This document shows, piece by piece, positions 14,686-32,189 of a stretch of DNA of 38,251 nucleotides. Below the pieces are notes generated by a model. The model worked only from the letters and a program-made list of their open reading frames with translations. It ran no database searches and was not told the DNA's origin. This DNA comes from Gemmatimonadota bacterium (GTDB lineage Bacteria > Gemmatimonadota > Gemmatimonadetes > Gemmatimonadales > GWC2-71-9), in NCBI GenBank assembly GCA_039591485.1, contig JBDHDN010000003.1:1-38251 (forward strand). The letters are read 5' to 3'. The translations under genes and the position numbers were made by a program. Position 1 is the first letter of the stretch. The number at the start of each line of letters is the position of its first letter.

Positions 14686-16431
<1,746 letters not shown>

Positions 16432-16600
16432 GAAGCCGTCCTTTCGGTGCGGGGGCGAAATCGCCATGCTCGGACCGAGCACAGGTATACTGTCGCCCAG
16501 GCTGTGGGCTGGCCAGCCCGGGGTCGGAGGGTTCGGACGAATATCCCCGGCCGGTGGCGTGTACTCTTGACGAGCGACCTTCAGGAGAGGCGGAGCGGCT

Positions 16601-17185
16601 GTGGACATTCCACTGGGGAACAGCGACCTGCTCGCCGATCGCCCGCTGGTACTCCGGGTGCGGTCAGGTGATCGGGACGCCTTCGGTGAGCTGGTGCTCA
16701 AGTACATGCGGCGGGCGTACTTCGCCGCTCTCGGCATCGTCGGCTCGCACGACGATGCCATGGACCTGTCGCAGGATGCCTTCGCCCGGGCCTTTCGAGC
16801 GCGCAAGCGGCTCGATCCAGATCGCCCGTTCTACCCGTGGCTCTATCAGATCCTGCGCCGTCTCTGCTTCAACCATCTCCGCAACCAGAGGACCCGTCGC
16901 GCTCGGCTCGAGGAAGCGGCAGGCTGGCTGACCGATCGGGCACGCAGTGAGGCGGCAGCGACCGCACCGGACCGGACGGTGGAGCGGGCCGAGCTCAGAG
17001 CGCGCCTCGAGACGGCGATCGCCACGCTCCGCCCGCACGAACGCGAGGTCATTGTCATGCGGGAGTTCGAAGGTCTCACGTATCGGGAGATTGCCGACCT
17101 GCTGGGAATCCCGATCGGCACGGTCATGTCGCGTCTGTACGCGGCGCGCAGGAGGCTGGCAGCCATCCTTGGGGAGGCGACATGA
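16601..17185 (+). CDS. ECF RNA polymerase sigma factor (RpoE/SigW-like)
   Basis: GDRDAFGELV, DAMDLSQDAF, F.PWLYQI and GLTYREIADLLGIPIGTVMSRL. Confidence 0.92.
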   Translation: MDIPLGNSDLLADRPLVLRVRSGDRDAFGELVLKYMRRAYFAALGIVGSHDDAMDLSQDAFARAFRARKRLDPDRPFYPWLYQILRRLCFNHLRNQRTRRARLEEAAGWLTDRARSEAAATAPDRTVERAELRARLETAIATLRPHEREVIVMREFEGLTYREIADLLGIPIGTVMSRLYAARRRLAAILGEAT

Positions 17186-17646
17186 GTGGTTTCGATTTGC
17201 ATCCAGACGATCGGGCGCGTCATCTGATGATGGCGGCGTTGGACGGCGAGTTTTCGCGCCAGGAGCAGGCGGATCTCGATCGGCTGCTGCGGCAGGACGC
17301 CGCACTCCGTGCCGAGTGGCAACAACTTCAGCGTGTGAAGGAGGTAACGACGACCATGTCCCTGCGTGATCCGCCGAAAGAGGTGTGGGAGGGGTATTGG
17401 CACGGGGTGTACCAGCGCTTCGAGCGCGGTCTCGCCTGGATTCTGGTGTCCGTGGGTGCGATCGTTGTGCTTTCGTGGGGAGCCTGGGGGGGTCTGCGCG
17501 AGCTGTGGAACGACCAGCAGCTCCCGGTGCTCGTCAAGGCCGGGTCGTTCGCCCTGATCGTCGGGCTCGTCATCCTCGCGGTTTCCGTCGTACGGGAGAA
17601 GCTGTTCATTCGCCGATCGGATCCTTACAAGGACGTCGTCAGATGA
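17182..17646 (+). CDS. Putative anti-sigma factor (membrane, two TM)
   Basis: ATGA overlap with the sigma gene; ASD-like N-terminus (LMMAALDGE) lacking HxxxCxxC; two TM helices. Confidence 0.75.
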   Translation: MSGFDLHPDDRARHLMMAALDGEFSRQEQADLDRLLRQDAALRAEWQQLQRVKEVTTTMSLRDPPKEVWEGYWHGVYQRFERGLAWILVSVGAIVVLSWGAWGGLRELWNDQQLPVLVKAGSFALIVGLVILAVSVVREKLFIRRSDPYKDVVR

Positions 17647-17963
17647 TGATCACTACCGCATCCTCGATCGCGGGCTACCGCGTTGTGAAGACGTTCGGAC
17701 TCGTGAGAGGCAACACGATCCGGGCACGGAACCTCGGCCGCGACCTGCTTGCCGTAATCAAGAACATGATCGGCGGCGAGATCGAGGAGTACACCAAGCT
17801 GATGGGCGAGTCGCGCGACCAGGCGCTCGACCGGATGATGGCGAACGCGGCCGAGTTGGGCGCGAACGCCATCACGGACGTCAAGTTCATGACGTCCTAC
17901 ATCATGGGCTCGGCGTCGGAGATCCTTGCGTACGGCAACGCCGTTACGATCGAGCCGGAGTGA
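17643..17963 (+). CDS. YbjQ/UPF0145 family protein
   Basis: MIITT-like start, GLVRGNTIRA, GGEIEEYT.L, A.ELGANAI and EILAYG.AV. ATGA overlap. Confidence 0.92.
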   Translation: MMITTASSIAGYRVVKTFGLVRGNTIRARNLGRDLLAVIKNMIGGEIEEYTKLMGESRDQALDRMMANAAELGANAITDVKFMTSYIMGSASEILAYGNAVTIEPE

Positions 17964-17977
17964 GCCTGAGGGGATCA

Positions 17978-19459
17978 ATGCGAACCGGATGGGGATTGAT
18001 GGCCGGGCTGTGGATCGCGCTCGCAGGCTCTGCCGGGCCGGCGGAGCTGGCCGGGCAGGACAGGGCAGTTGAGGGGCGCTGGCAGGGCGCGATCCTCGTG
18101 CTCGGCAGCGAGCTGGGGATCGGGGTGCAGGTCGTGAAGGACGCGGAGGCGTGGACCGCGACGATCGACATCCCGCAGCAGGGTGCGATGGGTCTGCCGC
18201 TCCGCAACGTGACCGTCGAGCTGCCACGGGTGCACTTCGAGCTGATGGGCGGTCCGGGTCTCGCCGTGTTCGACGGTACGCTTGTGGGTGACAGCATCAC
18301 GGGGACGTTCACTCAGGCCGGTGTCGAAGGCACCTTTCACCTCGGTCGCGAAGATACCGTAGGCGAGACCGAGGCGACGAGCACTGGCGACACGGTCACC
18401 GCCTACCGTGAAGAGGAAGTGACCTTCGCCAACGGCGACGTCACCCTCGCCGGCACGCTCACCCTGCCGAGCACCCCGGGACCCTACCCGGCCGTGGTAC
18501 TCATCACCGGCTCCGGCCCGCAGGATAGGGATGAGCAAGTCTTCGGCATGCGGCCGTTCCGGCTGATCGCGGATCATCTCGCCCGCGCTGGGATCGCCGT
18601 GCTGCGCTATGACGATCGCGGCGTGGGCGGATCGACGGGCAACGTGCAGCTCTCGACGTCCGAGGACTTCGCTGCGGATGCCATTGCCGGCGTGGCATTG
18701 TTGCGGGACCGTCCTGACATCCGGTCCGATAGGGTTGGTCTGGTCGGCCACAGCGAGGGGGCGATCGTGGCACCGATCGCCTCCGTGAAGTCCCCAGACG
18801 TCGCGTTCCTCGTGCTGCTCGCCGGCACGGCCGTCACAGGAAGTGAGATTCTGCTTGCTCAGGGAGAGCTCATCGCGCGGGCCGGGGGAGCGAGCGAGGA
18901 GGACGTCGCCACCCAGCGACGCCTTCAGGAGATGGTTTTCGCCGCCGTGCGGGCCGACACGGGCTGGGATGCGCTCCAAGCCGAGATCGAGCGGCAGATT
19001 CGCGCCGGCATCGACGACCTTCCCGAGGAACAGCGCGCAGCCATCACCGACCTCGACTCGTTCGTGGCGACGCGGAGCCAGCAGCAGCTCGTCGCCGTCA
19101 GGACCCCGTGGTTCCGTTACTTCCTCGACTACGATCCGAAGCGCGACCTGCGCCGCGTCGCGGTACCGGTACTCGGTGTCTTCGCCGAGAAGGATCTCCA
19201 GGTACCGCCCTCGGTGAACCTTGAGCCGATGCGGGCTGCGCTCGATGCAGCGCCGACGGACGATGTCACGATCGAGGTGATCTCGGGAGCCAACCATCTG
19301 TTCCAGGCGGCGACCACCGGAAGCCCCGACGAGTACGCTTCGCTCCCGAAGGAGTTCGTGGCGGGATTCATGGAACTGGTGAGCGGGTGGATCGTGAGGC
19401 GGACGGGCGGGCCGGGACCTGACGGGACGACGGCCCCCGGCGGTGCTGGGGGAGCCTGA
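17978..19459 (+). CDS. Secreted alpha/beta hydrolase (S9/S15-like) with N-terminal beta domain
   Basis: Signal peptide; LAGTLTLP, GSGPQDRDE, RYDDRGVGGS, GHSEG, KDLQV and NHLFQ. Confidence 0.85.
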   Translation: MRTGWGLMAGLWIALAGSAGPAELAGQDRAVEGRWQGAILVLGSELGIGVQVVKDAEAWTATIDIPQQGAMGLPLRNVTVELPRVHFELMGGPGLAVFDGTLVGDSITGTFTQAGVEGTFHLGREDTVGETEATSTGDTVTAYREEEVTFANGDVTLAGTLTLPSTPGPYPAVVLITGSGPQDRDEQVFGMRPFRLIADHLARAGIAVLRYDDRGVGGSTGNVQLSTSEDFAADAIAGVALLRDRPDIRSDRVGLVGHSEGAIVAPIASVKSPDVAFLVLLAGTAVTGSEILLAQGELIARAGGASEEDVATQRRLQEMVFAAVRADTGWDALQAEIERQIRAGIDDLPEEQRAAITDLDSFVATRSQQQLVAVRTPWFRYFLDYDPKRDLRRVAVPVLGVFAEKDLQVPPSVNLEPMRAALDAAPTDDVTIEVISGANHLFQAATTGSPDEYASLPKEFVAGFMELVSGWIVRRTGGPGPDGTTAPGGAGGA

Positions 19460-19567
19460 GCAGCCGGAAGTCTTGTGGGGAATCCGCCACGACCGAAACC
19501 GTGCAGGCCACGTACCGTAGTGACGCCGACTCGCACACGACCATCGCCAGCCCTCGGAGACCCCGCC

Positions 19568-21133
19568 ATGCGCCGTCGCGTTGCCGTTGCGATCACCACG
19601 CTCGTTCTTTCGCTTCCGGCTCCCGTCCTCGCCCAAGGTGACCCGCTGGCCAGCATCACCGAAGCCGAGCTGCGCGAGCACATCTTCTTCCTCGCGTCCG
19701 ATTCCCTGCAAGGGCGGGACTCCCACGAGGAGGGGTACCGCATCGCCGCCCGGTACGGTGCGGAGCATTTCGTATCCGCCGGACTCCAGCCGATGTTCAC
19801 CGACGCGAGCGGTGCGCCCAGCTTCTTCCAGCAGGTGCCGTTTGAAAGCGCGGCGCTGAGCCCGTCGAGTGTGCTGCGCATAACGGTCGACGGAACGGAG
19901 ACGGTGTACCGGATCGGCGAGGATCTCTTTGCCCAGCAGGTCTTCGGGACGAGAGACGCGTCGATCTCCGGTACGCCGGTGTTCGTGGGGTACGGGATCG
20001 AAGAGCCCGACCTCGGCTGGAACGACTACGAGAACGTCGATCTCGCCGGGAAGATCGCCGTCATGGTGGCCGGCACGCCGATGCGCGACGGGGAGCCGGT
20101 GCTGCCGGAGGAACGGCATCAGCACTACTCGAGCCTTCGGAGCAGCGGGCAGTCGGTGGTCGGGCCGGTGGCGAACCGCCAGGGAGCCGCGGTCATCGTC
20201 CTGCCCGACTCCGGGTTCATGCCGCTCTGGGAGCGCATGGCCCCGATGTCCACCCGCCCCTCGATTCGTCTCGCGGGGGCGAGCCGGCCCGAGGCCGACC
20301 CCATGGCGCTGGCCTGGGCCGTCGTGCCGAGGGCGGGCGTGGGATACGAGATGCTGGCGGGGACCGGGTTCGATCCGGTCACGCGCACCGGCGAGTACAC
20401 GCCCGGCCCGCTGAGGGGGGTTCACGTGTCGATCGAGATGACGCACGAGGCGGAACCTGCGTTCGAATCACCGAACGTCGTCGGCGTGGTGCCTGGCACC
20501 GACCCCGTCCTCACGAACGAGTACATCGTGGTCACGGCGCACCTCGATCACGTTGGCGTGGGAAACGACCAGGTGTTCAACGGTGCGGACGACAACGCGA
20601 GCGGGTCGGCGGCCGTCATCGAGGCGGCGGAGGCGGCGGGGCTCGCACCCGGCAAGCGCTCGATCATGTTCGTGCTGCTCACCAGCGAGGAGGACGGTTT
20701 GCTCGGCGCCTTTCACTTCGCCGACAACCCGCCCGTGCCGATCGAGCAGATCGTGCTGAACATCAACCTGGACATGGTGGGCCGGAACTCGCCCGCGTTC
20801 CCCGACGTGCTGCTGGCGATGGGATCGGAACTCAGGCGGCCCGAGCTGCTCCAGCTCATCCGCGACGTGAACGAGACGGTGGGCGCCAACCTCGACTGGC
20901 GGCTCAACGAGGGTCCCGATCCCCAGAATCACGTGCAGCGGAGCGATCAACTGGCGTTCATGCGGAAGCAGATCCCCGCCATCCTGATCACACGCGGGTT
21001 CATGGGGCCGGACTACCACGAGCCGTCCGACGATCCCGAGACGATCAACTACACGAAAGTACGGGACGCGGCGCGGCTCGCGTTCGGGCTCGCGATCGAG
21101 GCGGCGAACCGGGAGGTGCTGTTCGAGAACTAG
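19568..21133 (+). CDS. M28-family metallopeptidase with PA domain, secreted
   Basis: Signal peptide; LASDSLQGR, VFVGYG (PA), AHLDH, GADDNASG, SEEDGL, NLDMVG, RSDQ and DYHEPSD. Confidence 0.9.
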   Translation: MRRRVAVAITTLVLSLPAPVLAQGDPLASITEAELREHIFFLASDSLQGRDSHEEGYRIAARYGAEHFVSAGLQPMFTDASGAPSFFQQVPFESAALSPSSVLRITVDGTETVYRIGEDLFAQQVFGTRDASISGTPVFVGYGIEEPDLGWNDYENVDLAGKIAVMVAGTPMRDGEPVLPEERHQHYSSLRSSGQSVVGPVANRQGAAVIVLPDSGFMPLWERMAPMSTRPSIRLAGASRPEADPMALAWAVVPRAGVGYEMLAGTGFDPVTRTGEYTPGPLRGVHVSIEMTHEAEPAFESPNVVGVVPGTDPVLTNEYIVVTAHLDHVGVGNDQVFNGADDNASGSAAVIEAAEAAGLAPGKRSIMFVLLTSEEDGLLGAFHFADNPPVPIEQIVLNINLDMVGRNSPAFPDVLLAMGSELRRPELLQLIRDVNETVGANLDWRLNEGPDPQNHVQRSDQLAFMRKQIPAILITRGFMGPDYHEPSDDPETINYTKVRDAARLAFGLAIEAANREVLFEN

Positions 21134-21157
21134 GGTCGTACGGCGGTCTGACGGGAC

Positions 21158-21188
21158 GGCGGCAGGGATCGGGAACGCCCCTGCCGCC
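21158..21188. terminator. GC-rich hairpin between convergent genes
   Basis: GGCGGCAGGG (21158-21167) pairs with CCCTGCCGCC (21179-21188); no strong U-tract. Confidence 0.5.
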
Positions 21189-21226
21189 CTCGCGGGTCAT
21201 ACCGCCGCCACCTCCTTTACACCGCC

Positions 21227-22267
21227 TTACTGACCTACCGCCCTTAGCTCGTCGAGGAAACCCGCGTCCACCCACCAAATGTCCGCGTTGCCGCGGCCGG
21301 GAGCGTCGTAGATCTCGTTCAGCGTCTCGGCACTGAGCGAGTCGGGCCGGTCTTTCCATGGCGTGCGGCGCGTGGAGAGGTAGAAGAAGTAGCGGCCGTC
21401 GGGGGAGATGTACGCAGACAGGTTGCCGCTCCTGCCCGTGTCGATGACGTCCGGAAGACGTACCGGTTCGCTCCACGTATCCTCTTCGCTGCGGAACGTG
21501 ACGTAGTAGTCCGGCCGGCCATCCCCGCCTTCCGGCCCGTGGCTCGGCATGATGAGGAAGCGCTCGTCCGGATCGATGAACGCGTTGAACTGCATGCCCC
21601 AGTCGTTCACGGGCGACGGGAGGCGCTCGGGCTCGGTGTACTCACCGTCTACGAGGCGGGAGCGGTAGATGTGGCTCCCTGCCGTGCCCGGCACCGACCT
21701 GCTGAAGTAGAGCGTGCCGTCCCGCGTCATCGACGGGAAGAACGAGCCGGTGCTGTCGTTATTGATCGGTGCGTCGAGCAAATAGGGCTCGCCCCAGCCG
21801 TCGCCCACGCGGTTTACCGCCCAAATGTTCTCATACGCCCAACGGCCGCGCTCCTCGGGCTCGAGCGGCACGCCGTCGGGGCGCCGGTCGGAGAGGAACA
21901 GCATCCGCTGCCCGTCGGGGGTGATGTGCGGCTCGACCTCCTGGTGGACGGCGTCGGCGGAGAAGGGCACTACCTCAGGCTGCGTCCACCGACCATCCAC
22001 CAGCTGGCTCCCCATGATGACCGAGTAGCCGGACTCCATCACGCACCAGTACATCTCGGCGCCGTCCTGGGTCATCGCGATGTCGCGCGTGTACATGCCG
22101 GTCGAGACGACACCCGGAGCGAACACTTGCGGCTCCGCGCCGGGCGGCGTCTGGCCGAGGTACGGGCCGGTGAGGGTGGGGGGACCGTCGTTCTCCGGCG
22201 TAACGCACGCGGCGGCGAGCGCGAGCAGGAAGCCGGCGACGGCCGGCATGGCAAGCGGTCGAGGCAT
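21227..22267 (-). CDS. PD40/TolB-like beta-propeller lipoprotein
   Basis: Lipobox AAAC; GPYLGQTPPG..P.VFAPGVVS; repeats PHITPDG..MLFLSDR, AFIDPDE and YISPDGRYFFY.S. Confidence 0.8.
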   Translation of the reverse strand: MPRPLAMPAVAGFLLALAAACVTPENDGPPTLTGPYLGQTPPGAEPQVFAPGVVSTGMYTRDIAMTQDGAEMYWCVMESGYSVIMGSQLVDGRWTQPEVVPFSADAVHQEVEPHITPDGQRMLFLSDRRPDGVPLEPEERGRWAYENIWAVNRVGDGWGEPYLLDAPINNDSTGSFFPSMTRDGTLYFSRSVPGTAGSHIYRSRLVDGEYTEPERLPSPVNDWGMQFNAFIDPDERFLIMPSHGPEGGDGRPDYYVTFRSEEDTWSEPVRLPDVIDTGRSGNLSAYISPDGRYFFYLSTRRTPWKDRPDSLSAETLNEIYDAPGRGNADIWWVDAGFLDELRAVGQ

Positions 22268-22364
22268 CCTCGCACCTGCGGGATGTTGAAGACGGTTGAC
22301 GATCACTATAACGCAGATGTATATACGGCCTTTGGTACCGGTGCACAACCTCTGCGCCCGCCGG

Positions 22365-22396
22365 AGACGCGCCAGCCCTAGGAGCTGGTAACGCGA
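22365..22396 (+). repeat. Degenerate att-like copy of the tRNA-Leu anticodon arm (left end of cassette A)
   Basis: AGACGCGCCAGCCCTAGGAGCTGGTAACGCGA is 31/32 identical to 25546-25577, including the non-tRNA tail AACGCGA. Confidence 0.85.
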
Positions 22397-22401
22397 ATCG
22401 C

Positions 22402-25257
22402 TCACTGCACCTCACCGAGATAGCGATCGTACCATCGGAGCGTGTGGCGGATGACCTCGTTCCACGGCGGGATATGCCCGGCTTCCAGCACCACGAATTC
22501 CTTGTCACGGTCGGGGACGTCGAACGCATCGAAGTACGGCACCTGGCCGGTCTCGTACGGGTGCATGAAGTCGCGCCGTCCGTTGATCAGCATGGTGGGC
22601 GTCGTGATGCGGGAGGCGAAGTTCCATGGTGCGTTCTCGGGCATCACGACGTCGCGCCATACCGGATCGAACGCCCCACCCACCAACACCAAGGCCCGGA
22701 ACCGCTTCTCCAACGCCACCGGAACCGCGATTTCCGCACCGAGGCTCAGGCCCAGGAAGCCCAAGGCGTCACTGCGTAGGTCGGATCGCTCAGTCACGTA
22801 GTCCACCGTGCGATGCAGGTCCTGCGTGACCCACACCGTCCACTGGCGACGTGCGATGCCGCGTGCGCGGGACTCGACAGGGCGCTCGTAGGAGCCCTTG
22901 TACATGGGGTAGACCAGTACTCGGCCGCTCCGTGGCACGTAGGAGATCAGCGCCAACTCAGAGGGATTCTCGGAGGCGCGCGGGCTGAACGCGGAACTAC
23001 CCGGGAAATAGACGACAGTCTGAAAGGGAGGCTCGGCGTTCCGTGGAAGAAAGACGTAGGCGGCGATCCGCTCGCCGCCGTACGCCGCGGTGTAGCTGAC
23101 CCGTTGGCGAATCCAGTGCCGCGCGGTGTCGGTGGCCTCGACGCGAGCAGCGAGGTCCGTCGGAACGTATTCGTAGAACCGGCGGAAGATGGCGAACGTC
23201 GCGTCGTCTACCGGCTGCACGCGGTTGAAATCGAAGAACGGCTGTTCGATCGGGTCGAGCAACGCGGTCGCCGGCGCCGACTCGTATGCAGCGCACCGGA
23301 ACCCGTTTCTGGGATCGCGGGACCACGGGTCCGCGGCATCGCCGTCGGCGTAGAGGTACTCTGGATCGGTCCACGCGCCGCCTAGGATGTGCCGAGACTC
23401 ACCAGTCGCATTGTGAACCCATTCACGGACGTTGCCCGCCATGTCGTGCGTGCCGGACGGACCGATGCCCCCGAGGCTGCCGACGGCGATGGTGCTGTCG
23501 CCACTGAAATTGCTGACGGTGAGGATATGATCCCACACGACCTCGGTGAAGCCGGCGGCGTGCCGCCAGTGGTAGTACGTCGGCAGGGCCTTGCCATTGG
23601 CACGACAGAACGCGGCCGCTTCGTACCAGCTCACGCCGCCCACGGGATGGTCAGCGCGGCCGGCGGAGTGCTGACTGAGCTCCCACGTGGCCGGACCCTG
23701 GCGCCCCGTGCGGTCGACGAAGGTCTCCATGGCGTCGTCCCAGGAGACGGGCCGGCCGTTGCGCACGAACGGTTCTACCCAGTGCGTCGAGTCCTCGTAG
23801 CCCCCGGCGGCGACGAAGTCCTGGAACGCGCGATTGGTGACCTCGAACCGATCGAGACGAAACGAGTCCAGCGCCATCGGCATGGCGGACGAGGCGTCGG
23901 TGCCGGCAGGAACCCAGAGCATGTCGCCGGATTCCTCCTCCGGAACCAGGCGTGCCGTGACCGATCCGAACTCGGAGATCATGCTGACTTCCAGCGGATG
24001 ATACCCCGAGCGGGCGAACCGGACGCGCAGTTGGCCGGCCGGCAGCGGAAACTGCTCGAGCGGGGTCACACCGGCATCAAACCACACGGAGTCGCCATGC
24101 CGGTACCCACGGAACTGAACGGTCGCTCCGGGGGGGGCCGATGCGATGTCGACCGGCAACGTGGTGATCGAGAGGTACTCGGTGAGCGTCGGGTCATCCG
24201 GTCGCCTGAGGAGCGCCTCACGCGCGAGGCCGTACGCGCCTGCGAACCGGCCTGCCTCCACTAGTTGCTCGATGCCCGGAATCGCCACTTCCTGGACCCA
24301 GCGGCGGTCAGCGGTATCGCGGAACCAGCGAACACCCACGAGTGCTCCCGCCACGGCGACAACGGCTGCTGCCCCGATGAAGACGCGGCGTGTACGGGCC
24401 GGCAGACGAGGGGTCGACGGGCCTGCCGGCGGCGCCAGGGCCGCCGCAAACTCCGCTGCCGTGGCGAAGCGCGCATCGCGGTTCGGAGCGAGCGCGCGGT
24501 CGACGACGGCCGCCGTGGCCGGTGGAACATCCGGTCGTCTTTCGCCGATGCGCGCCGGGGTCTCGGTCACGATGCGAGCGATGAGCTCCGGAAGCGACGC
24601 CGCGCTGAACGGGGTCGCGCCGGTGAGCATTTCGTACAGCACGGCACCGAGAGCATAGATGTCCGACCGTGAATCGAGATCGCGTTCTCCCGCAGCCTGT
24701 TCCGGACTCATGTAGCGCGGGCTGCCCAGCGAAAGGCCCGTTTCGGTAAGACGGCCGCTGCCCGCCTCGCTGACGGCGAGCGCGATGCCGAAATCCGCCA
24801 CGAGCACCTTGCCGTCCTGCAGCAAGATGTTCTCCGGTTTGATGTCTCGATGAATCACTCCGCGGCGGTGTGCGAAGTCGAGCGCCTCCGCGACTTCGAT
24901 CGCGATTCGCGTCGCCGCCGCGAGGTCGAGTTGGCCCTCACGCGCCAGGGTGTCGCGGAGGGACTCACCGTCGACATACGGCATCACGTAGTAGAGGAAC
25001 CCAGCGGCTTCCCCAGAGTCATAGAGCGGCAGGATGTGCGGGTGCTGGAGATTAGCGGTCGTCTTGATCTCCTGCACGAACCGCTCGGCCCCGAGCACAG
25101 CGGCCAGTTCCGGGCGCAGCACCTTGAGCGCCACCTGACGTTCATGCTTGAGATCTACCGCGAGATAGACCGTCGCCATCCCGCCGCTACCGATCTCTCG
25201 ATCGATGGCATACCGGTCGGCGAGGGCTGCTTTGAGGCGATCGAGTTGGTCGGACAT
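22402..25257 (-). CDS. Transmembrane Ser/Thr protein kinase fused to FGE-sulfatase-like and alpha/beta-hydrolase domains
   Basis: GSGGMATV, VALK, HRDIKPEN, DFG, YMSPEQ; TM VFIGAAAVVAVAGALV; FEVTN, HPVGGVSWYEAAAFC, DMAGNVREW, NGFRC; GLSLG, NGRRD, AGH. Confidence 0.9.
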   Translation of the reverse strand: MSDQLDRLKAALADRYAIDREIGSGGMATVYLAVDLKHERQVALKVLRPELAAVLGAERFVQEIKTTANLQHPHILPLYDSGEAAGFLYYVMPYVDGESLRDTLAREGQLDLAAATRIAIEVAEALDFAHRRGVIHRDIKPENILLQDGKVLVADFGIALAVSEAGSGRLTETGLSLGSPRYMSPEQAAGERDLDSRSDIYALGAVLYEMLTGATPFSAASLPELIARIVTETPARIGERRPDVPPATAAVVDRALAPNRDARFATAAEFAAALAPPAGPSTPRLPARTRRVFIGAAAVVAVAGALVGVRWFRDTADRRWVQEVAIPGIEQLVEAGRFAGAYGLAREALLRRPDDPTLTEYLSITTLPVDIASAPPGATVQFRGYRHGDSVWFDAGVTPLEQFPLPAGQLRVRFARSGYHPLEVSMISEFGSVTARLVPEEESGDMLWVPAGTDASSAMPMALDSFRLDRFEVTNRAFQDFVAAGGYEDSTHWVEPFVRNGRPVSWDDAMETFVDRTGRQGPATWELSQHSAGRADHPVGGVSWYEAAAFCRANGKALPTYYHWRHAAGFTEVVWDHILTVSNFSGDSTIAVGSLGGIGPSGTHDMAGNVREWVHNATGESRHILGGAWTDPEYLYADGDAADPWSRDPRNGFRCAAYESAPATALLDPIEQPFFDFNRVQPVDDATFAIFRRFYEYVPTDLAARVEATDTARHWIRQRVSYTAAYGGERIAAYVFLPRNAEPPFQTVVYFPGSSAFSPRASENPSELALISYVPRSGRVLVYPMYKGSYERPVESRARGIARRQWTVWVTQDLHRTVDYVTERSDLRSDALGFLGLSLGAEIAVPVALEKRFRALVLVGGAFDPVWRDVVMPENAPWNFASRITTPTMLINGRRDFMHPYETGQVPYFDAFDVPDRDKEFVVLEAGHIPPWNEVIRHTLRWYDRYLGEVQ

Positions 25258-25353
25258 ATGGGAGAGAAGATGCAACAGGGCGAGCACTGACGCGAGCCAC
25301 CGTTGGGGCTCGTCTACCCTCCCAGAAGGGACCCGGGGGCATTCCGGCTGCCC

Positions 25354-25374
25354 GGACCCGCACCTAAACCCGTA
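25354..25374 (+). repeat. 12-bp-period motif (GGACCCGCACCT-AAACCCGTA), candidate integrase arm site of cassette A
   Basis: 172 bp upstream of the tRNA 5' fragment; equivalent to the motif pair 178 bp upstream of the intact tRNA. Confidence 0.5.
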
Positions 25375-25474
25375 ACGCGACGATCCCCTACGGGCCGGCC
25401 AGACATGAGAGAAGCAGCTACATGGTGAGGCGGGAGTTGACCTGGCTCCGGCCAGCGAGCGGACCCCGTCCTTG

Positions 25475-25525
25475 CGGGGAAAGCCTACTCCCCCAACACG
25501 CTCGACACTACCTTACGGTCGGTTC
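25475..25525 (+). promoter_or_regulatory. Putative replacement tRNA promoter carried by cassette A
   Basis: TACCTT (-10-like) at 25509-25514; aligns ungapped (offset 3988) with 29463-29513. Confidence 0.5.
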
Positions 25526-25570
25526 GCGGCCGTGGCGGAACTGGTAGACGCGCCAGCCTTAGGAGCTGGT
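25526..25570 (+). repeat. tRNA-Leu 5' fragment (45 nt), att junction between cassettes A and B
   Basis: Exact copy of 29514-29558 (identity extends 6 nt upstream, CGGTTC). Diverges after the anticodon stem, so no variable arm, T-arm or 3' acceptor strand. Confidence 0.95.
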
Positions 25571-25639
25571 AACGCGAGTCTGCCAACCCCCTCCAAGCCC
25601 CGTCAGGACAAGCCTTTCAATAATCGGCCGATGTTCGGT

Positions 25640-25676
25640 GGACCTGCATCTGGACCCGCGTTAGACCGGGACAATC
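25640..25676 (+). repeat. Tandem 12-bp motif pair, candidate arm sites at left end of cassette B
   Basis: GGACCTGCATCT-GGACCCGCGT; 25641-25661 is 20/21 identical to 29337-29357. Confidence 0.7.
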
Positions 25677-25712
25677 ACCGTCTACGACAGAGGCCGTCCC
25701 CCGGCTCTCCCG

Positions 25713-26747
25713 TCAGTCTCTTCGGCCCGGGACGTACGGATCCGGCGTGCCCGGCTTGATCGGTGGCTCCAGTTGAAGAGATTGTGCATGCTCGACGAGC
25801 ACCTGGCCGGCTGGATAACGGACCCAGAAGTTCGGCGGCGCATTGAGAACCGGGTATTCCTCCTTCGGGTCCAGCAACAGATTGTAGAACAGCGGCACTC
25901 CGTAACTCCGGACCGGGTCGCCGGCAATCGTGCTGATTTCCTTCACCATCATCTTCCATTCACGCCACTTCACCCCGTAGAGCTCCTTGCCGACATAGAC
26001 AACCACTTACTCCCGATTGGATTGCTCGGTCATGCCCGTCAAGAAGTCAGTTTGGTCAATGCCGTCGATAACACGATCATCGGGCACTTCGCCATCGACT
26101 ATCCGAGCGAACGTCGTGAAGAGGTCCATTTCATGCACAATCTCGTTGTTGACGGCTCCCTCCGGTACATGGCCAGGCCAGCGTATGATGAATGGCACCC
26201 GCAGTGACCCTTCTAACCCGGTGAAATAACTGCCGCGCCAGGGACCGGAGAATCCCTGATGCGGAATCACGCCCTCAGGTCCGTTGTCTGCCGTGAAGAT
26301 GAAGATGGTGTTGTCCTTGATGCCCAATTCGTCGACCGCGTCAAGAAGCTCGCCGACGTATGCGTCGGTCTGGGCCAGCACGTCGGCCCAATGGCCGTTG
26401 CCAGTCTTCCCCTTGTTGTCAGGGTGGGGCTCGACTGGCAGGTGGGTCTGGGTGTAGGGAACGAAGGCGAAGAATGGCCCGTCTTCGGGTGCCTTCCGAC
26501 GCATGAAATCGATGGTGCGGTCGGTGATTTCACGATCGCTCGTTAGACGCTTGGCGCTGTCGTATACCTCAAGTTCTCTCGGAGTCTGACCGCGCTCGGC
26601 CTCCACGACATACTCGTACTTGACCAACGGATGCACGCCCGGCCGAAAGAGATCGTTGTCCGGCCAGTAACTCTCATCTGACGAATTGGGAATGCCAAAC
26701 CATTCGTCGAATCCCTGGTCAGTCGGATAGCGGCCGGGCGTATCACC
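25713..26747 (-). pseudogene. Arylsulfatase pseudogene (5'-truncated, internal TAA)
   Basis: Homology starts at GDTPGRYPTDQGFDEWFG, just after the expected GKWHL; CxPxR region absent. PFFAFVP...H.P, IFTADNG, EGSLRVPFIIRWPG, MDLFTT, IDGID and LFYNL..DP.E. In-frame TAA 26007-26009 splits ORFs 26007..26636 and 25713..26006. Confidence 0.9.
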
Positions 26748-26765
26748 TCGAACTGACCACGACGC

Positions 26766-28913
26766 CTACTCGGCGATGCCCGCAAGATCGAGAATGAATG
26801 CGTACCGGAATGCAATCTCTCGCCAGCCCTGGTAGCGGCCCGAAGAGCCTCCGTGTTCCCCTTCCATGTTCATCTGCAGCAGGAGAACGTTGTCGTCGGT
26901 TTTCAGCGCGCGCAGCTTCGCCACCCATTTGGTCGGCGCCCAGTACTGCACCTGCGTGTCGTGGAGGGCCGCGGTCACCAACATGTTGGGATAGTCCTGT
27001 CTCCGGACGTTCTCGTAGGGCGAATACGAGAGCACGTACCGGTAGTACGCCTCCTGCTGCGGGTCGCCCGACCCGGACACCGCGGTATTGCTCATGAACG
27101 ACGCAAGCACATCCACATTCGGCACCTGCGCCACGATTCCCTTGAACAGGTCGGGCCGCATGTTGGCGACGGCGCCCATCAGGAGTCCACCAGAGCTAAT
27201 GCCGTGGGCGAAGAGTCTGTCTGGGCTCGCGTAACCTTCACTGATTAGGAACTCAGCCACGGCGATGAAGTCGGTGAACGTGTTGCGCTTCTTGAGCCCC
27301 TGACCATCCTCGGCCCACTGACTGCCCATCTCCTCACCACCGCGGACGTGGGCGATGGCGTAGATGAAACCGCGATCGAGGAGGCTCAGGACTGGCGGGT
27401 CGAACGCCGCATCCACAGTCGCGCCACCGTAGCCGTACAGCAGTAGATGGCTCGCGCCGTCCCTCCTGGTGCCCTTGCGGTATACGATGGAGACCGGGAC
27501 CGAGACACCGTCCCGCGCTGGCGCATGGAGCCGCTCGGACACGTACTCGGCCGGATCGAAGTCGCCCAGGACTTCCTCCCGCTTCACCAACTCCTGCTCC
27601 CGCGTATCCATGTTGTAGTCGTACACAGAAGTCGGAGTCGTGAAGGATGAGTATTGATAGCGGAGAATGTTGGACTCGGGATCACTCCTCAAAATGTTGG
27701 CGTGATATACCGGCTCTCCGAAATCGAGGTAGTACTCGCCTTCCCCGGACCATGGCCGAATCCACACGTGAACCACTCCCTCTCTCCTCTCCACCACCAC
27801 TAGATGATCCCGGAACACTTCGAAACCCTCGAGCAGCACGTCTTCTCGGTGGGGGATCACTTCCTCCCAGTGCTCCACGCCCGTCTCGCTGACAGGGGTG
27901 CGCATCAGCTTGAAGTTCTGAGCCCCGCCGTGGTTCGTCCGTATGTAGAAGTAGTCGCCTACAGGAACGAAGCTGTAATCGTGCCCCGGCTGGCGCGGCA
28001 GGAAGAGGTTGAATGCCCCGTCAGGTTGATCGGCGTCCAAGTATCGCCACTCGTTGCCCCATGGTCCCCAAGTCTCGATCACGAGGTAGCCGTTCCTTGG
28101 CCAAACGAGGCAGCGGGACCTCTCCTCCTCGTGAACCAGCTCATCCTCTATGGGATCGGTGCCGAGAACGTGACGGTAGATCTGATACGGGCGCGGGTTG
28201 ACCGGGGGGCGGGTCTGCTTCGCGTAGAACAGGGTGCGGCCGTCGTTGGCCCAGGCCATGTTGGCCGTTACAGAGTCAATGACGTCATCGAGGAATTCAC
28301 CGGTCCCGAGGTCCTTGAATCGTATCGTGGAGTAGTGACGCCCGACTGTATCGACAGCAAAGGCCATGATCTCCTGGTTCGGACTGAGGGTCGGGAAGCG
28401 CACAGCGGTGTACGCGTGGCCCTCGGCGATCTCATTAACGTCGATGAGGATCTCTTCGTCGGCCTCCAGACTGCCTCTCTTCCGGGCATATATCGGATAC
28501 TCCTTTCCCTCCTCATGGCGGTAGTAGTGGAAGTAGTCACCCTGGCGCCACGGCACGGAGAGATCGGTCTCCCTCACGCGTCCGGATATCTCCTGGAAGA
28601 GTGTCTCCTGGAGCGCCTCCGTACGGGCCATCATGGCCTCGGTGTGCGCGTTCTCCGCTTCCAGGTAGGCGATCACCTCGGGGTTCTCGCGATCCTGTAG
28701 CCAGAAGTAATTGTCGATCCGTACGTGCCCGTAAGCCTCGAGGCGCGTGGGGGCAATCTTGGCCACAGGAGGCAGGATCTCCTGGGGCGTCTCCTGGGCT
28801 CCTCTTTCCTCAGTCGCCCAATGGCTCAGCACGGTGCCGCCAAGGCACACGCTTGCGAGGAGGGGTGCCCACAGAACGCCGCCGACAAGGCGTGCTTCTC
28901 GCCGATCACGCAT
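26766..28913 (-). CDS. Oligopeptidase B-like S9A serine peptidase, probably secreted, divergent specificity pocket
   Basis: DNYFWL, VIAYLEAENA, ARDGVSVPVSIVY, HVRGGEE.G..W, KRNTFTDFI, GISSGG (Ser), HDTQV (Asp) and EHGG (His). AAGGAG RBS; hydrophobic N-terminus. Confidence 0.9.
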   Translation of the reverse strand: MRDRREARLVGGVLWAPLLASVCLGGTVLSHWATEERGAQETPQEILPPVAKIAPTRLEAYGHVRIDNYFWLQDRENPEVIAYLEAENAHTEAMMARTEALQETLFQEISGRVRETDLSVPWRQGDYFHYYRHEEGKEYPIYARKRGSLEADEEILIDVNEIAEGHAYTAVRFPTLSPNQEIMAFAVDTVGRHYSTIRFKDLGTGEFLDDVIDSVTANMAWANDGRTLFYAKQTRPPVNPRPYQIYRHVLGTDPIEDELVHEEERSRCLVWPRNGYLVIETWGPWGNEWRYLDADQPDGAFNLFLPRQPGHDYSFVPVGDYFYIRTNHGGAQNFKLMRTPVSETGVEHWEEVIPHREDVLLEGFEVFRDHLVVVERREGVVHVWIRPWSGEGEYYLDFGEPVYHANILRSDPESNILRYQYSSFTTPTSVYDYNMDTREQELVKREEVLGDFDPAEYVSERLHAPARDGVSVPVSIVYRKGTRRDGASHLLLYGYGGATVDAAFDPPVLSLLDRGFIYAIAHVRGGEEMGSQWAEDGQGLKKRNTFTDFIAVAEFLISEGYASPDRLFAHGISSGGLLMGAVANMRPDLFKGIVAQVPNVDVLASFMSNTAVSGSGDPQQEAYYRYVLSYSPYENVRRQDYPNMLVTAALHDTQVQYWAPTKWVAKLRALKTDDNVLLLQMNMEGEHGGSSGRYQGWREIAFRYAFILDLAGIAE

Positions 28914-28930
28914 CTGACATCTCCTTGGCC

Positions 28931-29071
28931 CTAGGGTGTGGAGGTCTCTCGGCCGTGATGCTTCAGGTCCTCGGCGAGGTAGACCGTTGCCATGCCGCCG
29001 CTGCCGATCTCCCGCTCGATCGTGTAGCGGTCGGCAAGGGCCTTCCTGAGGCGGCCCAGAACGTCTGACAT
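28931..29071 (-). pseudogene. Ser/Thr kinase 5' stub (46 codons)
   Basis: MSDVLGRLRKALADRYTIEREIGSGGMATVYLAEDLKHH then unrelated GRETSTP-TAG; closely parallels the N-terminus of the kinase at 25257. Missed by the ORF track. Confidence 0.9.
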
Positions 29072-29158
29072 GACTTCACTGCCCAGAATGGCGATGTGCC
29101 AACGATACGGTACGCGGACGCAGTGGGCTAGAACAAACCCTACAGATGTCCAGGGTTC

Positions 29159-29170
29159 AGACCCGCACCT
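29159..29170 (+). repeat. Single copy of the arm-like motif (AGACCCGCACCT)
   Basis: 11/12 identical to 25354-25365; 177 bp before the next copy. Confidence 0.45.
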
Positions 29171-29335
29171 GCCTTGAGTCGCCCCGGAGGCGGGTCCTTC
29201 CGCTCCGTGCTGTCAAGATGGGACCCGTTGGGCGAGCGAGGTGTGATGCCCACCAGCTCGGCAGCCAGTAGCGGAGCACTTGCGTTGCCGGTGACCCTAC
29301 CTAGCTCGGGGTCTGCAGATCTCGCAAGAATCGCG

Positions 29336-29372
29336 TGACCCGCATCTGGACCCGCGTCGATACCGGAAAATC
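29336..29372 (+). repeat. Tandem 12-bp motif pair, candidate arm sites at right end of cassette B
   Basis: TGACCCGCATCT-GGACCCGCGT...ACCGG...AATC, direct repeat of 25640-25676. Confidence 0.7.
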
Positions 29373-29462
29373 CGTTACGAATCCGTCTGACGTACTGGAA
29401 GATCCTACATCAGCAGTGTTGAAGCGGGCCTGTCTGCGACCCACCAATAGCCCCTGCTTCCG

Positions 29463-29513
29463 GTCGGAAGAGCTAGGCCGACAACAGGTTGGACGCTACT
29501 TTACGGGCGGTTC
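29463..29513 (+). promoter_or_regulatory. Putative promoter of the intact tRNA-Leu, supplied by cassette B
   Basis: TACTTT (-10-like) at 29497-29502, GC-rich spacer, and dyad GTCGG-N10-CCGAC upstream. Confidence 0.5.
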
Positions 29514-29596
29514 GCGGCCGTGGCGGAACTGGTAGACGCGCCAGCCTTAGGAGCTGGTGGGGTTTCCCCGTGTGGGTTCGACTCCCTCCGGCCGCA
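29514..29596 (+). tRNA. tRNA-Leu (anticodon TAG), CCA not encoded
   Basis: Acceptor GCGGCCG/CGGCCGC plus discriminator A; D-arm with GGTAGAC; anticodon arm CCAGC-CTTAGGA-GCTGG; variable arm GGGG-TTT-CCCC; T-loop TTCGACT. Confidence 0.96.
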
Positions 29597-29601
29597 TCGA
29601 C

Positions 29602-29634
29602 AAGCCCCGCACCGAACTAGCCGTTGCGGGGCTT
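29602..29634 (+). terminator. Hairpin downstream of tRNA-Leu
   Basis: AAGCCCCGCA (29602-29611) pairs with TGCGGGGCTT (29625-29634). Confidence 0.6.
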
Positions 29635-29691
29635 CGTGTGCGCACTCCGAGCGGTCAGGACAGGGGTGACAGGTCGCGGCCGCCGGCGGCA

Positions 29692-29708
29692 GCAAGCACC
29701 GTGCTTGC
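29692..29708. promoter_or_regulatory. Perfect palindrome, candidate operator upstream of the ACP gene
   Basis: GCAAGCAC-C-GTGCTTGC, 65 nt upstream of the ACP start. Confidence 0.35.
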
Positions 29709-29773
29709 CACTGGGGCGCCGGACCTCCAGAATTCGACTGCCAGTCCGTCATTTCTCGGCACAGGAGACAGCG

Positions 29774-30016
29774 ATGGAGCGCAGCGAGATCCAGCACCGT
29801 GTTACGAGCGTCGTGGCGAACGTGTTGAACGTCGATCCCGGCGAGGTACTGCCCGAGTCGAACCTCGTCTTCGACTTGGGAGCCGATTCCTTCTCGAGCG
29901 TCGAGTTGATCGCCGGCTTCGAGGAGGAGTTCGACATCGAGATGGACGAGGACAAGGCCCGCGAGGTCCAGACGGTCGAGGGAGCCGTCGATTTCATTGC
30001 GCAGTACATGAAGTAG
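29774..30016 (+). CDS. acpP: Acyl carrier protein
   Basis: 80 aa, acidic; DLGADSFSSVEL (phosphopantetheine Ser), FEEEFDIE and TVEGAVDFI; AGGAG RBS. May be a non-canonical paralogue. Confidence 0.88.
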   Translation: MERSEIQHRVTSVVANVLNVDPGEVLPESNLVFDLGADSFSSVELIAGFEEEFDIEMDEDKAREVQTVEGAVDFIAQYMK

Positions 30017-30047
30017 CGCTCCACCGGACCCACCTTCCGGAGTCATC

Positions 30048-32189
30048 ATGGTCGATCCCACCGCTCCGAGCCGAAACCGACTCGAGCCGATCTTCTCGCC
30101 GAAGTCCGTTGCCGTCGTTGGAGTCACGCGCGTTCCCGGTACCGTTCCCTACGACATCTTCCGGAACATCCTGAAAGACGATTTCCAGGGGACGATCTAT
30201 CCGGTCAGCCCCGGCGCGCGATCCATTGCCGGGGTCAAAGCGTACAAGTACGTCCTCGATATCCCCGATCCTATCGACCTGGCGGTGATCGTCTTCCCCG
30301 CCAACGTCGTCAAGCTGGCGCTGGAACAGTGCGGCGAGCGGGGTGTGAAGGGCGCGATCGTCATCAGCGCGGGATTCCGAGAGGTCGGCGCCGCCGGCTC
30401 GGCGCGCGAAGAGGAGATCAAGGGGATCGCTCGGAAGCACGGGATATCCATGATCGGGCCGAACTGCCTCGGGATGATCAACACCGACGCGAGCGTGCAC
30501 CTGAACGCGTCGTTTGCGCGCCGCATGCCGGCGGCGGGATCGATCGGGTTCCTGTCCCAGAGCGGTGCGCTGTGCACCGCGGTGCTTGACTACGCGCACG
30601 CGAAGCACATCGGCTTTTCCAAGTTCGTCTCCTTCGGCAACAAGGCTGACGTCAGCGACATCGATCTGATGCTGGCGCTCAAAGACGATCCCGCCACTAA
30701 GGTCATTCTCATGTACCTCGAGGAGATGATCGACGGGGCAGCGTTCGTCGACGCGGCCCGCACGGTGATCCACGAGGCAGGCAAGCCGGTGCTCGTGCTG
30801 AAGTCTGGACGGACGGAGCAGGGGGCATCGGCCGCCGCCTCACATACGGGATCGCTTGCGGCAAGCGACGAGATCGTGGACGCAGCACTCAAGCAGGCGG
30901 GTGTCATCCGGTGCCACACGATCGAGGAGATGTTCAACAACGCCATCGCGATGGCCTACCAGCCGCTTCCGCGGGGACGTCGCGTTGCGATCATCACGAA
31001 CGCCGGTGGCCCGGGCGTGCTGACGACCGACGCCGCCATCCACGAGAAGCTGGAGCTCGCAACCTTCTCCGAGCAGACGCGCGACACGTTCAAGCAGTCG
31101 CTGCCCGCGACGGCCAACCTCAATAACCCCGTGGACGTGATCGGCGACGCACGGGCCGACCGCTACCGCGTCGCGCTCGGAAGCGCGCTCGAGGACGAAA
31201 ACGTGGACGGCGCGCTCGTCATCCTCACACCGCAGTCGATGACCGACATCGACGTGATCGCGGAGGAGGTGTGCGATGTCGCGTCGGTGTATGACAAACC
31301 GACATACGCTTCGTTCATGGGTGAGACCGACGTCGCCTCGGGGATCACCATTCTGCAGCGCCGCAACATCCCACACTACGTGCTGCCCGAGTCCATGTGC
31401 CGCGCGTTTGCGCGGGCACACGACTTCCGGTCGGAGAGCGGGCGGCGGCTCACTCCGGCCCGTCACTTCGACGACGTGGACGTCGCAGCCGCGCGCAGTG
31501 CGCTCGAGGTCGCCATCGCCGCCGGGCGCACCTACCTGACCCCGTCCGACGCCATCAAGGTGCTGGACGCGTACCGACTGCCGGTGCTGCGCGGCGCCGT
31601 CGCGCACTCGGTGGAGGACGCCGCGCGCATGGCGGCGGACGTGGGCTTTCCGGTCGCAATGAAGGTCGAGTCGGACGACATCGTCCACAAGTTCGACGTC
31701 GGCGCGGTCGTACTTGCCGTCGAGACGCCCGAGGGCGCCTCCGCTGCGTACGAAACCATCATCACGAATGCCACGGCGCATCAACCGGAGGCCCGCATCA
31801 CCGGCGTGTACGTGCAGCGCATGGCGGGCGAAGGCGACGAGGTGATCCTCGGCGTCAAACGCGATCCGGCCTTCGGCCCCGTGGTGATGTTCGGCCTCGG
31901 TGGCCTGTTCGTCGAGATCTTCCGTGACGTGGCGTTCCGGATGGCCCCCATCCCACTCGAGCACGTCCGCGAGATGATGCACGAGGTCAGGGGATTGCCG
32001 ATCCTGACCGGGGCGCGCGGGCGCCCGCATCGCGACATGGAGGCCCTCGAAGAATGCCTCCAACGGCTGTCACAGCTGGTCGTCGACTGTCCGCAGATCC
32101 AGGAGCTCGACATCAACCCCCTGATCGTCCGCAATCGGGGGGACGGCTGCGCGGTCACCGACGCGCGGATCTTGGTCGCCGGCGCATGA
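30048..32189 (+). CDS. ADP-forming acetate/acyl-CoA ligase, fused alpha-beta (CoA-binding + ATP-grasp)
   Basis: PKSVAVVG, ISAGFRE, IGPNCLG, SQSGAL, GNKADV, ASHTGSL (phospho-His), NAGGPG, NPVDVIG, HKFDVG, FGPVVMFGLGG and ELDINPL. No GNAT domain. Confidence 0.92.
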   Translation: MVDPTAPSRNRLEPIFSPKSVAVVGVTRVPGTVPYDIFRNILKDDFQGTIYPVSPGARSIAGVKAYKYVLDIPDPIDLAVIVFPANVVKLALEQCGERGVKGAIVISAGFREVGAAGSAREEEIKGIARKHGISMIGPNCLGMINTDASVHLNASFARRMPAAGSIGFLSQSGALCTAVLDYAHAKHIGFSKFVSFGNKADVSDIDLMLALKDDPATKVILMYLEEMIDGAAFVDAARTVIHEAGKPVLVLKSGRTEQGASAAASHTGSLAASDEIVDAALKQAGVIRCHTIEEMFNNAIAMAYQPLPRGRRVAIITNAGGPGVLTTDAAIHEKLELATFSEQTRDTFKQSLPATANLNNPVDVIGDARADRYRVALGSALEDENVDGALVILTPQSMTDIDVIAEEVCDVASVYDKPTYASFMGETDVASGITILQRRNIPHYVLPESMCRAFARAHDFRSESGRRLTPARHFDDVDVAAARSALEVAIAAGRTYLTPSDAIKVLDAYRLPVLRGAVAHSVEDAARMAADVGFPVAMKVESDDIVHKFDVGAVVLAVETPEGASAAYETIITNATAHQPEARITGVYVQRMAGEGDEVILGVKRDPAFGPVVMFGLGGLFVEIFRDVAFRMAPIPLEHVREMMHEVRGLPILTGARGRPHRDMEALEECLQRLSQLVVDCPQIQELDINPLIVRNRGDGCAVTDARILVAGA

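Follow-up and report, generated by a model that had tools for sequence, protein, structure and literature searches.

Partial tRNA-Leu copies and a conserved arm delimit a putative tandem array of small cassettes, several with Ser/Thr kinases, in a Gemmatimonadota genome

Organization of the variable region

The window analysed here is a stretch of 38,251 nucleotides (contig C3) of a Gemmatimonadota bacterium whose genome, G000, is a draft of 652 contigs (4.56 Mb, 89.7% completeness, GC near 0.67). Directly upstream of its tRNA-Leu(TAG) gene lies a variable region (19460-29596) with two cassettes, A and B, that are interleaved with partial copies of the tRNA gene and contain a Ser/Thr kinase gene or what is left of one (Table 1). 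An original prediction, made from the letters of this stretch, held that both cassettes place a kinase start at the same end and in the same orientation close to a common GACCCGCACCT motif. It further held that an arm, a kinase promoter with the kinase 5' end and variable downstream cargo might form the backbone of a mobile element family by which kinase paralogues spread. Our analysis partly supports it.

Kinase A has a complete Hanks-type domain (Pkinase PF00069, 167.5 bits, profile positions 1-252 of 263) and an ATG that lines up with the N-termini of its homologues. Cassette A is, as predicted, essentially a kinase only (Pfam). Both kinase starts read leftwards, away from the tRNA-Leu promoter copies (25478-25570 and 29466-29558), and the predicted distances of 97 and 88 nt from motif to ATG are correct. 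The kinase N-terminus seen in cassette B is indeed homologous to kinase A and the relatives' kinases (82% identity over 38-39 aa), but it belongs to a dead stub of 46 codons; homology stops near 28954, leaving ~39 kinase-like residues and no Pfam match. The stub is probably a relic whose body was replaced by the low-GC block that follows, the sulfatase relic and the prolyl oligopeptidase (GC 0.58-0.62 vs about 0.67), a composition that points to foreign cargo. An intact sulfatase gene lies 3' of tRNA-Leu and on its strand in G005 (L025:10174-11784); the relic in cassette B is on the opposite strand.

Cassettes of this kind recur in relatives. At the start of each, the tRNA sequence breaks off behind the anticodon stem and a conserved arm of ~100 nt takes over; the cassettes measure 2.4-5.8 kb and have their own promoters. 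Counting those bounded on both sides on one contig, nine are non-empty. Besides the kinase of cassette A and the sulfatase relic, oligopeptidase and kinase stub of cassette B, their cargo comprises a TPR kinase (G007), three small open reading frames (ORFs) with a PD40 kinase (G114), two kinases (G006), a 221-aa ORF with a saccharopine dehydrogenase (G167:C5), a PP-loop GMP-synthase-like gene and three small ORFs (first and second cassette of G167:C9, respectively), and an Sf6 small-terminase-like ORF with two small ORFs in a 2.4-kb cassette of G034 (L023:4511-6981) from which an arm of this type is absent. A kinase or stub is present in five of the nine, always proximal to the tRNA and reading away from it, which makes sensor kinases the commonest but not the sole cargo. 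A repeated boundary module with variable cargo is therefore what survives of the proposed backbone, often with a tRNA-proximal kinase; since four non-empty cassettes have none, the kinase 5' end is not a universal part of it.

Table 1. Features of the variable region in the window
Feature	Position	Strand	Evidence or remark
M28 peptidase	19475-21133	+	Pfam; inside oldest variable segment 19460..22364
PD40 lipoprotein-like ORF	21227-22405 (frame)	-	Pfam; inside oldest variable segment 19460..22364
tRNA-Leu fragment, tRNA positions 21-45, 1 mismatch, fused to AACGCGAATC	22365..22399	+	left junction of cassette A
Kinase A, 951 aa, ATG 25257 (ORF 22402-25287)	22402..25257	-	Pkinase, PEGA, FGE-sulfatase-like, alpha/beta-hydrolase tail
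Locus-specific kinase promoter block, 30 nt	25267..25296	+	10 nt upstream of kinase A ATG
Diverged U box, then directly TAACGCGA (arm start)	25355..25385	+	holds the first motif of the original prediction
Partial copy: tRNA-Leu promoter	25478-25525	+	
Partial copy: tRNA positions 1-45	25526-25570	+	ends at 3' side of anticodon stem (GCTGGT)
Conserved arm: AACGCGAGTC, AAGCCCCGTCA box, TTCGGTGG, U' box	25571..25660	+	
U' box, arm end	25637-25660	+	
Sulfatase pseudogene, two frames (25713-26006, 26007-26636)	25713..26636	-	Pfam; without profile positions 1-141
Prolyl oligopeptidase, 715 aa	26766..28913	-	Pfam, 332.5 and 199.7 bits
Kinase stub, 46 codons + stop (28931-28933), ATG 29071	28931..29071	-	reads MSDVLGRLRKALADRYTIEREIGSGGMATVYLAEDLKHH, then GRETSTP
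Second GACCCGCACCT	29160..29170	+	stub upstream region, partly kept in G003 and G004
U box with flank	29337..29372	+	direct repeat of 25641-25676, 78% identity
tRNA-Leu promoter of intact gene	29466-29513	+	
Intact tRNA-Leu(TAG)	29514-29596	+	ARAGORN; Rfam tRNA 56 bits; sole intact tRNA of window

Partial tRNA-Leu copies share a breakpoint

The promoter and 5' half of the intact tRNA gene (29466-29558) are repeated at 25478-25570 with 86% identity over 93 nt. Both partial copies in the window break after the anticodon stem GCTGGT and then read AACGCGA(G/A)TC. Direct repeats of the target tRNA at both ends, with the intact gene at one of them, are the signature of an integrative element that targets a tRNA gene, and this is the arrangement found here. 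The same breakpoint, the 3' end of the anticodon stem followed by AACGCGAG or AAGAT and the arm, is used in G000, G007, G114 and G167; in G034, which belongs to another genus, a fragment of the same tRNA breaks in the anticodon loop.

In three of the five partial copies (G000, G007 and G167:C5a) the tRNA part has none of its 45 positions changed from the intact gene, while 14-18 changes fall in the 60 nt upstream of it (Fisher p 1e-5 to 2e-4). The copy at 25478-25570 in G000, for example, has 45 of 60 upstream positions identical beside a perfect tRNA part. The remaining two are older, with 4 and 6 differences in the tRNA part. A dead duplicate would decay evenly, whereas an identical tRNA half beside a diverged promoter is what would result if two long-separate functional 5' halves had recently been joined; serial site-specific integration thus appears to fit these copies better than local duplication. 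The pattern could be mimicked if gene conversion had acted on the tRNA part only or if the partial copy were functional.

The duplication model in its full form needs no site-specific recombinase: kinase, intergenic region and tRNA 5' half would have been duplicated by illegitimate or unequal recombination, and the array resized and homogenized by homologous recombination and gene conversion, like the many other kinase arrays of G000. Apart from the uneven divergence just described, which is unlike duplication followed by decay, this model is at odds with the recurrence of the anticodon-stem breakpoint with different cargo and in different genera. It is also at odds with an arm that is 86% common to cassettes of unrelated cargo.

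The conserved arm and its U boxes

The original prediction had treated GACCCGCACCT as an element shared by the two kinase upstream regions, and this part did not hold up. A MAFFT alignment of the kinase-to-tRNA spacers of G000, C623 and relatives showed that, of the copies at 25355 and 29160, the former is homologous to the box at 29337 (which reads GACCCGCATCTGGACCCGCG) and not to the latter. The 11-mer does not exceed chance in the window either: with at most one mismatch there are three matches vs 1.40 expected, and 18 shuffles out of 100 have at least as many. What is conserved is the box GGTGGACCYGCATCTGGRCCCG, in place of GACCCGCACCT, whose two copies are not positional homologues. U boxes lie ~175 nt upstream of the tRNA copies and are repeated at the arm end, ~70-90 nt beyond the breakpoint; placed on either side of the breakpoint, they have what looks like the layout of arm-type sites flanking a core. 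The form GACCYGCAYCT has 33 copies in the genome, four of them within 25355-29347 and one on C623. It stands upstream of only two kinases, both on C3, among 106, and a role as general kinase promoter was thereby ruled out.

Across the junction of tRNA 5' half and arm, G000 and G007, two members of the same genus, are 86% identical over 100 nt in front of different cargo. We found 12 local arm instances; the invariant blocks in eight aligned copies from five genera are AA..CCGTCA, TCGG and TTCGGTGG. A corrected arm pattern (CTGGYAA, 22 N, AANNNCCGTCA, 26-36 N, TTCGGTGG), verified on known copies, was searched for in 401 genomes of the family, which represent 78 genera and also served for the integron-integrase tally given below. 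These two tallies include the unpublished G311, G099, G226, G164 and G265, and two other tallies include the unpublished G021; no locus-level claim depends on any of them. The exact pattern is present in six genomes of four genera, and a backward control gave no match. The other arm genera are one with both G114 and G167 and two more with G080 and G132, respectively; two short contigs of one metagenome also match. Tandem arms free of cargo, 119 nt apart, occur in G167:C9 (L047:395-620) and G181:C365 (L050:340-545). Those of G167 lie 120 nt upstream of the PP-loop GMP-synthase-like gene, on its strand, and those of G181 are followed by an extension and a strong hairpin.

It has to be considered whether the unit of tRNA promoter, 5' half and arm could be a functional gene in its own right, for a tRNA-derived small RNA or as a regulatory leader, with paralogues under selection and kinases adjacent because of shared divergent control regions. 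The arm boxes are invariant in the eight aligned copies and intact beside decayed tRNA, the tRNA part is perfect in three of five copies, and terminator-looking hairpins follow some of them. Furthermore, arms precede a same-strand gene of 215/221 aa in G114 and G167, and the G167:C9 tandem arms stand before the PP-loop gene, as just described. The folding data argue the other way. The consensus RNA fold of the arm is weak (-14.6 kcal/mol), with compensatory change in only two of 19 predicted pairs, and five single-strand DNA folds of the unit (either strand, DNA parameters) were no better than shuffles (z 0.12 to 0.83). The Rfam 15 covariance models gave no arm family at E <=1 in window 21500-30500 or at E <=5 in the loci of three relatives, the sole match at the arm region being a 22-bit tRNA match over 25526-25591. 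The covarying arm element is a direct repeat (GGACC..GGACC vs GGGTC..GGGCC), which suggests that a protein binds to the DNA, and the arm meets the 3' end of a convergently oriented gene in G000, G007 and G167:C5b. We therefore regard a functional unit of this kind as distinctly unlikely.

A further piece of the tRNA gene lies on G000 contig C623 (541-737; L066), where a U box, the tRNA promoter and tRNA bases 1-20 are followed by unrelated DNA. The break falls exactly where the fragment at 22365 in the window begins (tRNA base 21), and either the two belong to a single copy that was broken apart, or the assembly is in error there. On metagenome contig L056, a 96%-identical copy of the C623 gene is joined to a tRNA remnant and an arm. 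In G114, GCTGGTAACGCG is found ~50 nt upstream of the intact tRNA.

Kinases at the locus and elsewhere in the genome

The shared kinase promoter of the original prediction exists, but only locally. Allowing up to seven substitutions, the 30-nt block occurs once in the whole 4.56-Mb genome, before kinase A, and it also precedes K-807 of G007 and K2 and K3 of G006. It is thus common to four kinases in three genomes, whose kinase domains are 50-62% identical, and other G000 kinases are without it. The stub and the G003 kinase have a second type of upstream region in common, a remnant of which persists in G004. Orthology of kinase A with the tRNA-adjacent FGE-type kinases was ruled out by identities of 55% (kinase domain) and 37% (tail) to that of G003 and of 50% and 39% to that of G006. 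In a tree of 81 G000 kinase domains and nine locus kinases, location requires 8 changes vs a shuffled mean of 8.7 (124 of 500 shuffles are as low), and the locus kinases accordingly look scattered: by this measure they are not one clade.

Close to intact tRNA-Leu(TAG) genes, a divergent kinase start within 500 bp was found at five of 21 genes with usable context (G000, G003, G007, G016 and G114), compared with about 0.006 expected per site and orientation at the G000 density of 106 starts in 4.56 Mb; all five fall within two genera and are therefore not independent. The 16 genes without a kinase are those of G001, G002, G004, G005, G008 (two copies), G015, G027, G034, G049, G057, G167, G208, G240, G292 and G345; a G006 copy at a contig end was excluded.

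Genome-wide, the picture is different. In G000 there are about 114 kinase ORFs, whose sensor tails are of TPR, PD40 or other types; many of them lie head-to-tail in arrays of up to five genes (five on C197, four to five on C105, three on C84, others on C258, C409 and C571), and at least 10 short ORFs match the kinase N-terminus only. Only two of 106 kinase starts are near the motif or a tRNA-Leu fragment, the other 104 being without either, and of the 43 tRNA genes, two lie no more than 500 bp from a kinase start (about 1.0 expected). On these counts, the locus is not the main route of kinase spread. A TATCTT-like hexamer was noticed by eye about 7-15 nt before many G000 kinase start codons, a position that suggests leaderless or near-leaderless transcripts.

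Two comparisons bear on exchange between kinases. The domain of K-807 of G007 (L021:11037-11897) and G000 C23:2997-3857 (L064) are 91% identical in protein and 82% in DNA; the homology spans about codon 3 to about residue 290 and the tails are unrelated, while the C23 kinase's own full-length orthologues reach only 53-70% identity. K-759 of the G167 array (L046:7168-9492) is 91.3% DNA-identical to G000 C451:290-2614 (L065) over the whole gene and about 20 nt on either side; clpX, clpP and tig of the same genome pair are 82%, 79% and 68% identical. This match reflects either horizontal transfer or a mis-binned contig (C451 has 3.5 kb). Together, the mosaic K-807 and the K-759/C451 pair argue that kinase segments change their surroundings, in part through recombination within the kinase domain, which is conserved.

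These data touch two of the alternatives. Duplication without a site-specific recombinase gains from the large number of kinase ORFs, head-to-tail arrays and N-terminal stubs in G000, from the demonstrated exchange of a kinase domain between genes with unrelated C-termini (K-807 vs C23) and from cassettes that have no recombinase. In addition, the kinases of G003 and G016 lie beside tRNA-Leu without any fragment, and the adjacency of kinase and tRNA could therefore be ancestral. Set against this, the other G000 kinase arrays have no such junctions or motif, and in view of the breakpoint and arm data given above we hold duplication to be fairly unlikely. A dedicated family of mobile kinase cassettes with a fixed backbone of arm and kinase promoter/5' end, serving as the main route of paralogue spread, would be the original prediction in its strict form. 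The promoter block common to four different kinases, the kinases in five of nine non-empty cassettes, the five of 21 tRNA-Leu(TAG) genes and the K-759/C451 identity, high when compared with that of clpX, are in keeping with it. Given the four kinase-free cassettes, the scatter of the locus kinases over the tree, the genome-wide counts, positive loci in only two genera and the possible mis-binning of C451, we consider it very unlikely.

Recombinases and comparison with related loci

The recombinases of G000 are two Xer-like tyrosine recombinases, one integron integrase and two fragments; a resolvase-type serine recombinase was not found in this genome. The integron integrase (C101:1105-2148; L067) is full-length and scores 410 bits with TIGR02249 (cut-off 265). 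Downstream of it, at about 2560-2860, there is a run of short repeats containing AAGCTT, which is not an obvious attC array. G114 and G167 encode an integron integrase as well, as do 207 of the 401 family genomes when matches above the cut-off are counted.

It could be argued that an integron integrase encoded elsewhere moves the cassettes and that the unit is an attC-like site, since the C101 enzyme is the sole complete tyrosine recombinase of G000 besides the two Xer-like ones and the cassettes are recombinase-free and form an array. An attC-like hairpin was ruled out by the fold test of both strands (z 0.1-0.8), as was an association of unit and integron integrase (four of six unit-bearing genomes vs 207/401 overall). 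The integrase is on no unit-bearing contig, C101 being separate from the array on C3, and cassettes of 2.4-5.8 kb with their own promoters do not suit the model. It is largely refuted and in our opinion most improbable.

A comparison of G007 with G005 revealed 2.76 kb (arm, kinase and U region) exactly between two copies in G007, where G005 has a single tRNA. The flanks are shared and consist of an M1-peptidase-like gene (84%) and a CDP-alcohol transferase gene with tig-clpP-clpX (71-75%). G004, the closest relative of G000, is syntenic with 1747-19402 of the window and then has about 1.7 kb without a kinase up to the tRNA, compared with about 9.9 kb in G000; segment 19460..22364 is missing from it.

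Short assembled contigs from four public runs span 22097-22444 (0 differences), 25178-25549 and 29006-29537. Joints of ~25134 to ~28960 in these runs, seen on short contigs only, have differing letters and come from other organisms' kinases. No excised or empty form was seen in these short assembled contigs, the only data of this kind.

The 3' side of tRNA-Leu (29624-32189) is taken up in G000 by an acyl-carrier-like ORF and the gene for an ADP-forming acetyl-CoA synthetase. Relatives carry the CDP-alcohol transferase gene and tig-clpP-clpX there; tig-clpP-clpX of G000 are on contig C295.

Discussion

With moderate confidence, we interpret the region at 19460-29596 as an integration hotspot that contains a tandem array of integrase-less cassettes stacked by accretion. 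The repeats and their junctions, the conservation of the arm, the cargo and the mosaic kinases are shown; from them we infer a site-specific mechanism that proceeds through a circular intermediate, and the sequence of events given here. The circular elements would carry an attachment site in which the crossover point is flanked to one side by a U box, tRNA promoter and tRNA 5' half and to the other by the arm with a second U box at its end. Their target would be the anticodon stem-loop of the tRNA gene in the chromosome. A newcomer would bring in a working promoter and 5' half, and the 5' half that it displaced, now dead and joined to the newcomer's arm, would come to lie further left. The recombinase would have acted in trans or have been lost, and because the cassettes do not contain it they would be relics similar to cis-mobilisable elements (CIMEs). 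A locus-specific promoter would drive the kinases in the direction away from the tRNA, and recombination with paralogues would later have shuffled their bodies; foreign low-GC DNA would have taken the place of the kinase body in cassette B.

A number of points weigh against this interpretation. Repeats, junctions and cargo variation agree with the mobile element that was originally predicted, but no recombinase gene was detected in any of the nine non-empty cassettes (Pfam) or on any unit-bearing contig (PF00589). A complete element with an integrase adjoining the arm was not found, and searching with the corrected pattern added only the two short metagenome contigs. The difference between G007 and G005, which falls exactly at the repeats as integration would have it, could equally be a deletion between repeats, and so could that between G000 and G004, where the fit is rough. 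Arms are conserved even where the tRNA part has decayed, which needs continuing selection that a dead relic would not have, and the cargo-free tandem arms are not predicted by simple serial integration. Finally, every genome compared is a metagenome-derived draft assembly.

The conservation of arms beside decayed tRNA and the whole array kinase that is 91% DNA-identical across genera would suit a still-active system, in which trans-mobilised cassettes land at the tRNA-Leu(TAG) anticodon stem-loop. The site would be the tRNA 5' half plus the arm with its U boxes, and a recombinase encoded elsewhere would move sensor kinases and small metabolic genes among several genera, integron-like in logic and not in chemistry. 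We think such a system unlikely.

If a recombinase acts or acted in trans, the locus would be a compact gene-capture site at a tRNA gene that uses the rarely used 5' half. It would provide a concrete route for the exchange of single sensor-kinase genes among environmental bacteria that have over a hundred such kinases. On a conservative reading, the locus is hypervariable and can serve to compare strains, the histories of kinase domains and of sensor tails are separate in this lineage, and a better-defined pair of conserved boxes, testable for protein binding, replaces the first motif. New features are the joining of integrase-less accretion with recombination that brings in the promoter and 5' half, the small size of the cassettes, a conserved arm with paired U boxes across genera, no cognate integrase, and kinases as preferred cargo. 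Within the limited collection of literature searched, we found no description of kinase cassettes at tRNA genes.

Comparison with known systems

Integrase-less elements that retain att sites, and their tandem stacking, have been described (PMC5704250). A CIME keeps attL and attR and has lost the genes for integration and transfer (PMC5704250), and this is the state of the cassettes at tRNA-Leu, which resemble CIMEs and tandem accretion in their att-like tRNA repeats, the lack of integration and transfer genes and the tandem order beside an intact gene. In contrast to CIMEs, the repeat is the 5' half with its promoter and not the 3' end, the cassettes have only 2.4-5.8 kb, no related integrase-bearing element was present in any genome examined, and conservation of the arm extends to four genera.

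Cases of recombination at the 5' part of tRNA genes have been described but are uncommon (PMC6563490). As in the elements concerned (Zhao and Williams 2002 and others, cited in PMC6563490), the element here would supply the 5' part, and displaced 5' halves lie upstream of the intact gene; those elements are single and have their own integrase, whereas we describe an array without one.

Integron arrays and integrase-less attC clusters are similar in that recombinase-free cassettes end in a conserved site, with an integron integrase elsewhere in the genome. They differ in that the site at tRNA-Leu is not a hairpin, each cassette spans several kb and has promoters of its own, and the array abuts a tRNA gene and not attI beside intI.

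As to the kinases, the published view is that lineage-specific expansions of bacterial Ser/Thr kinases are due to tandem duplication, to recombination or to both (Perez et al. 2008, cited from PMC11032199); PMC11032199 does not use the word 'mobile'. The about 114 kinases of G000, many in tandem, with sensor tails and mosaic histories, conform to that view. What sets the locus apart from it is that tRNA fragments and a conserved arm alternate with the kinases, and that these share a promoter block found before no other kinase of the genome.

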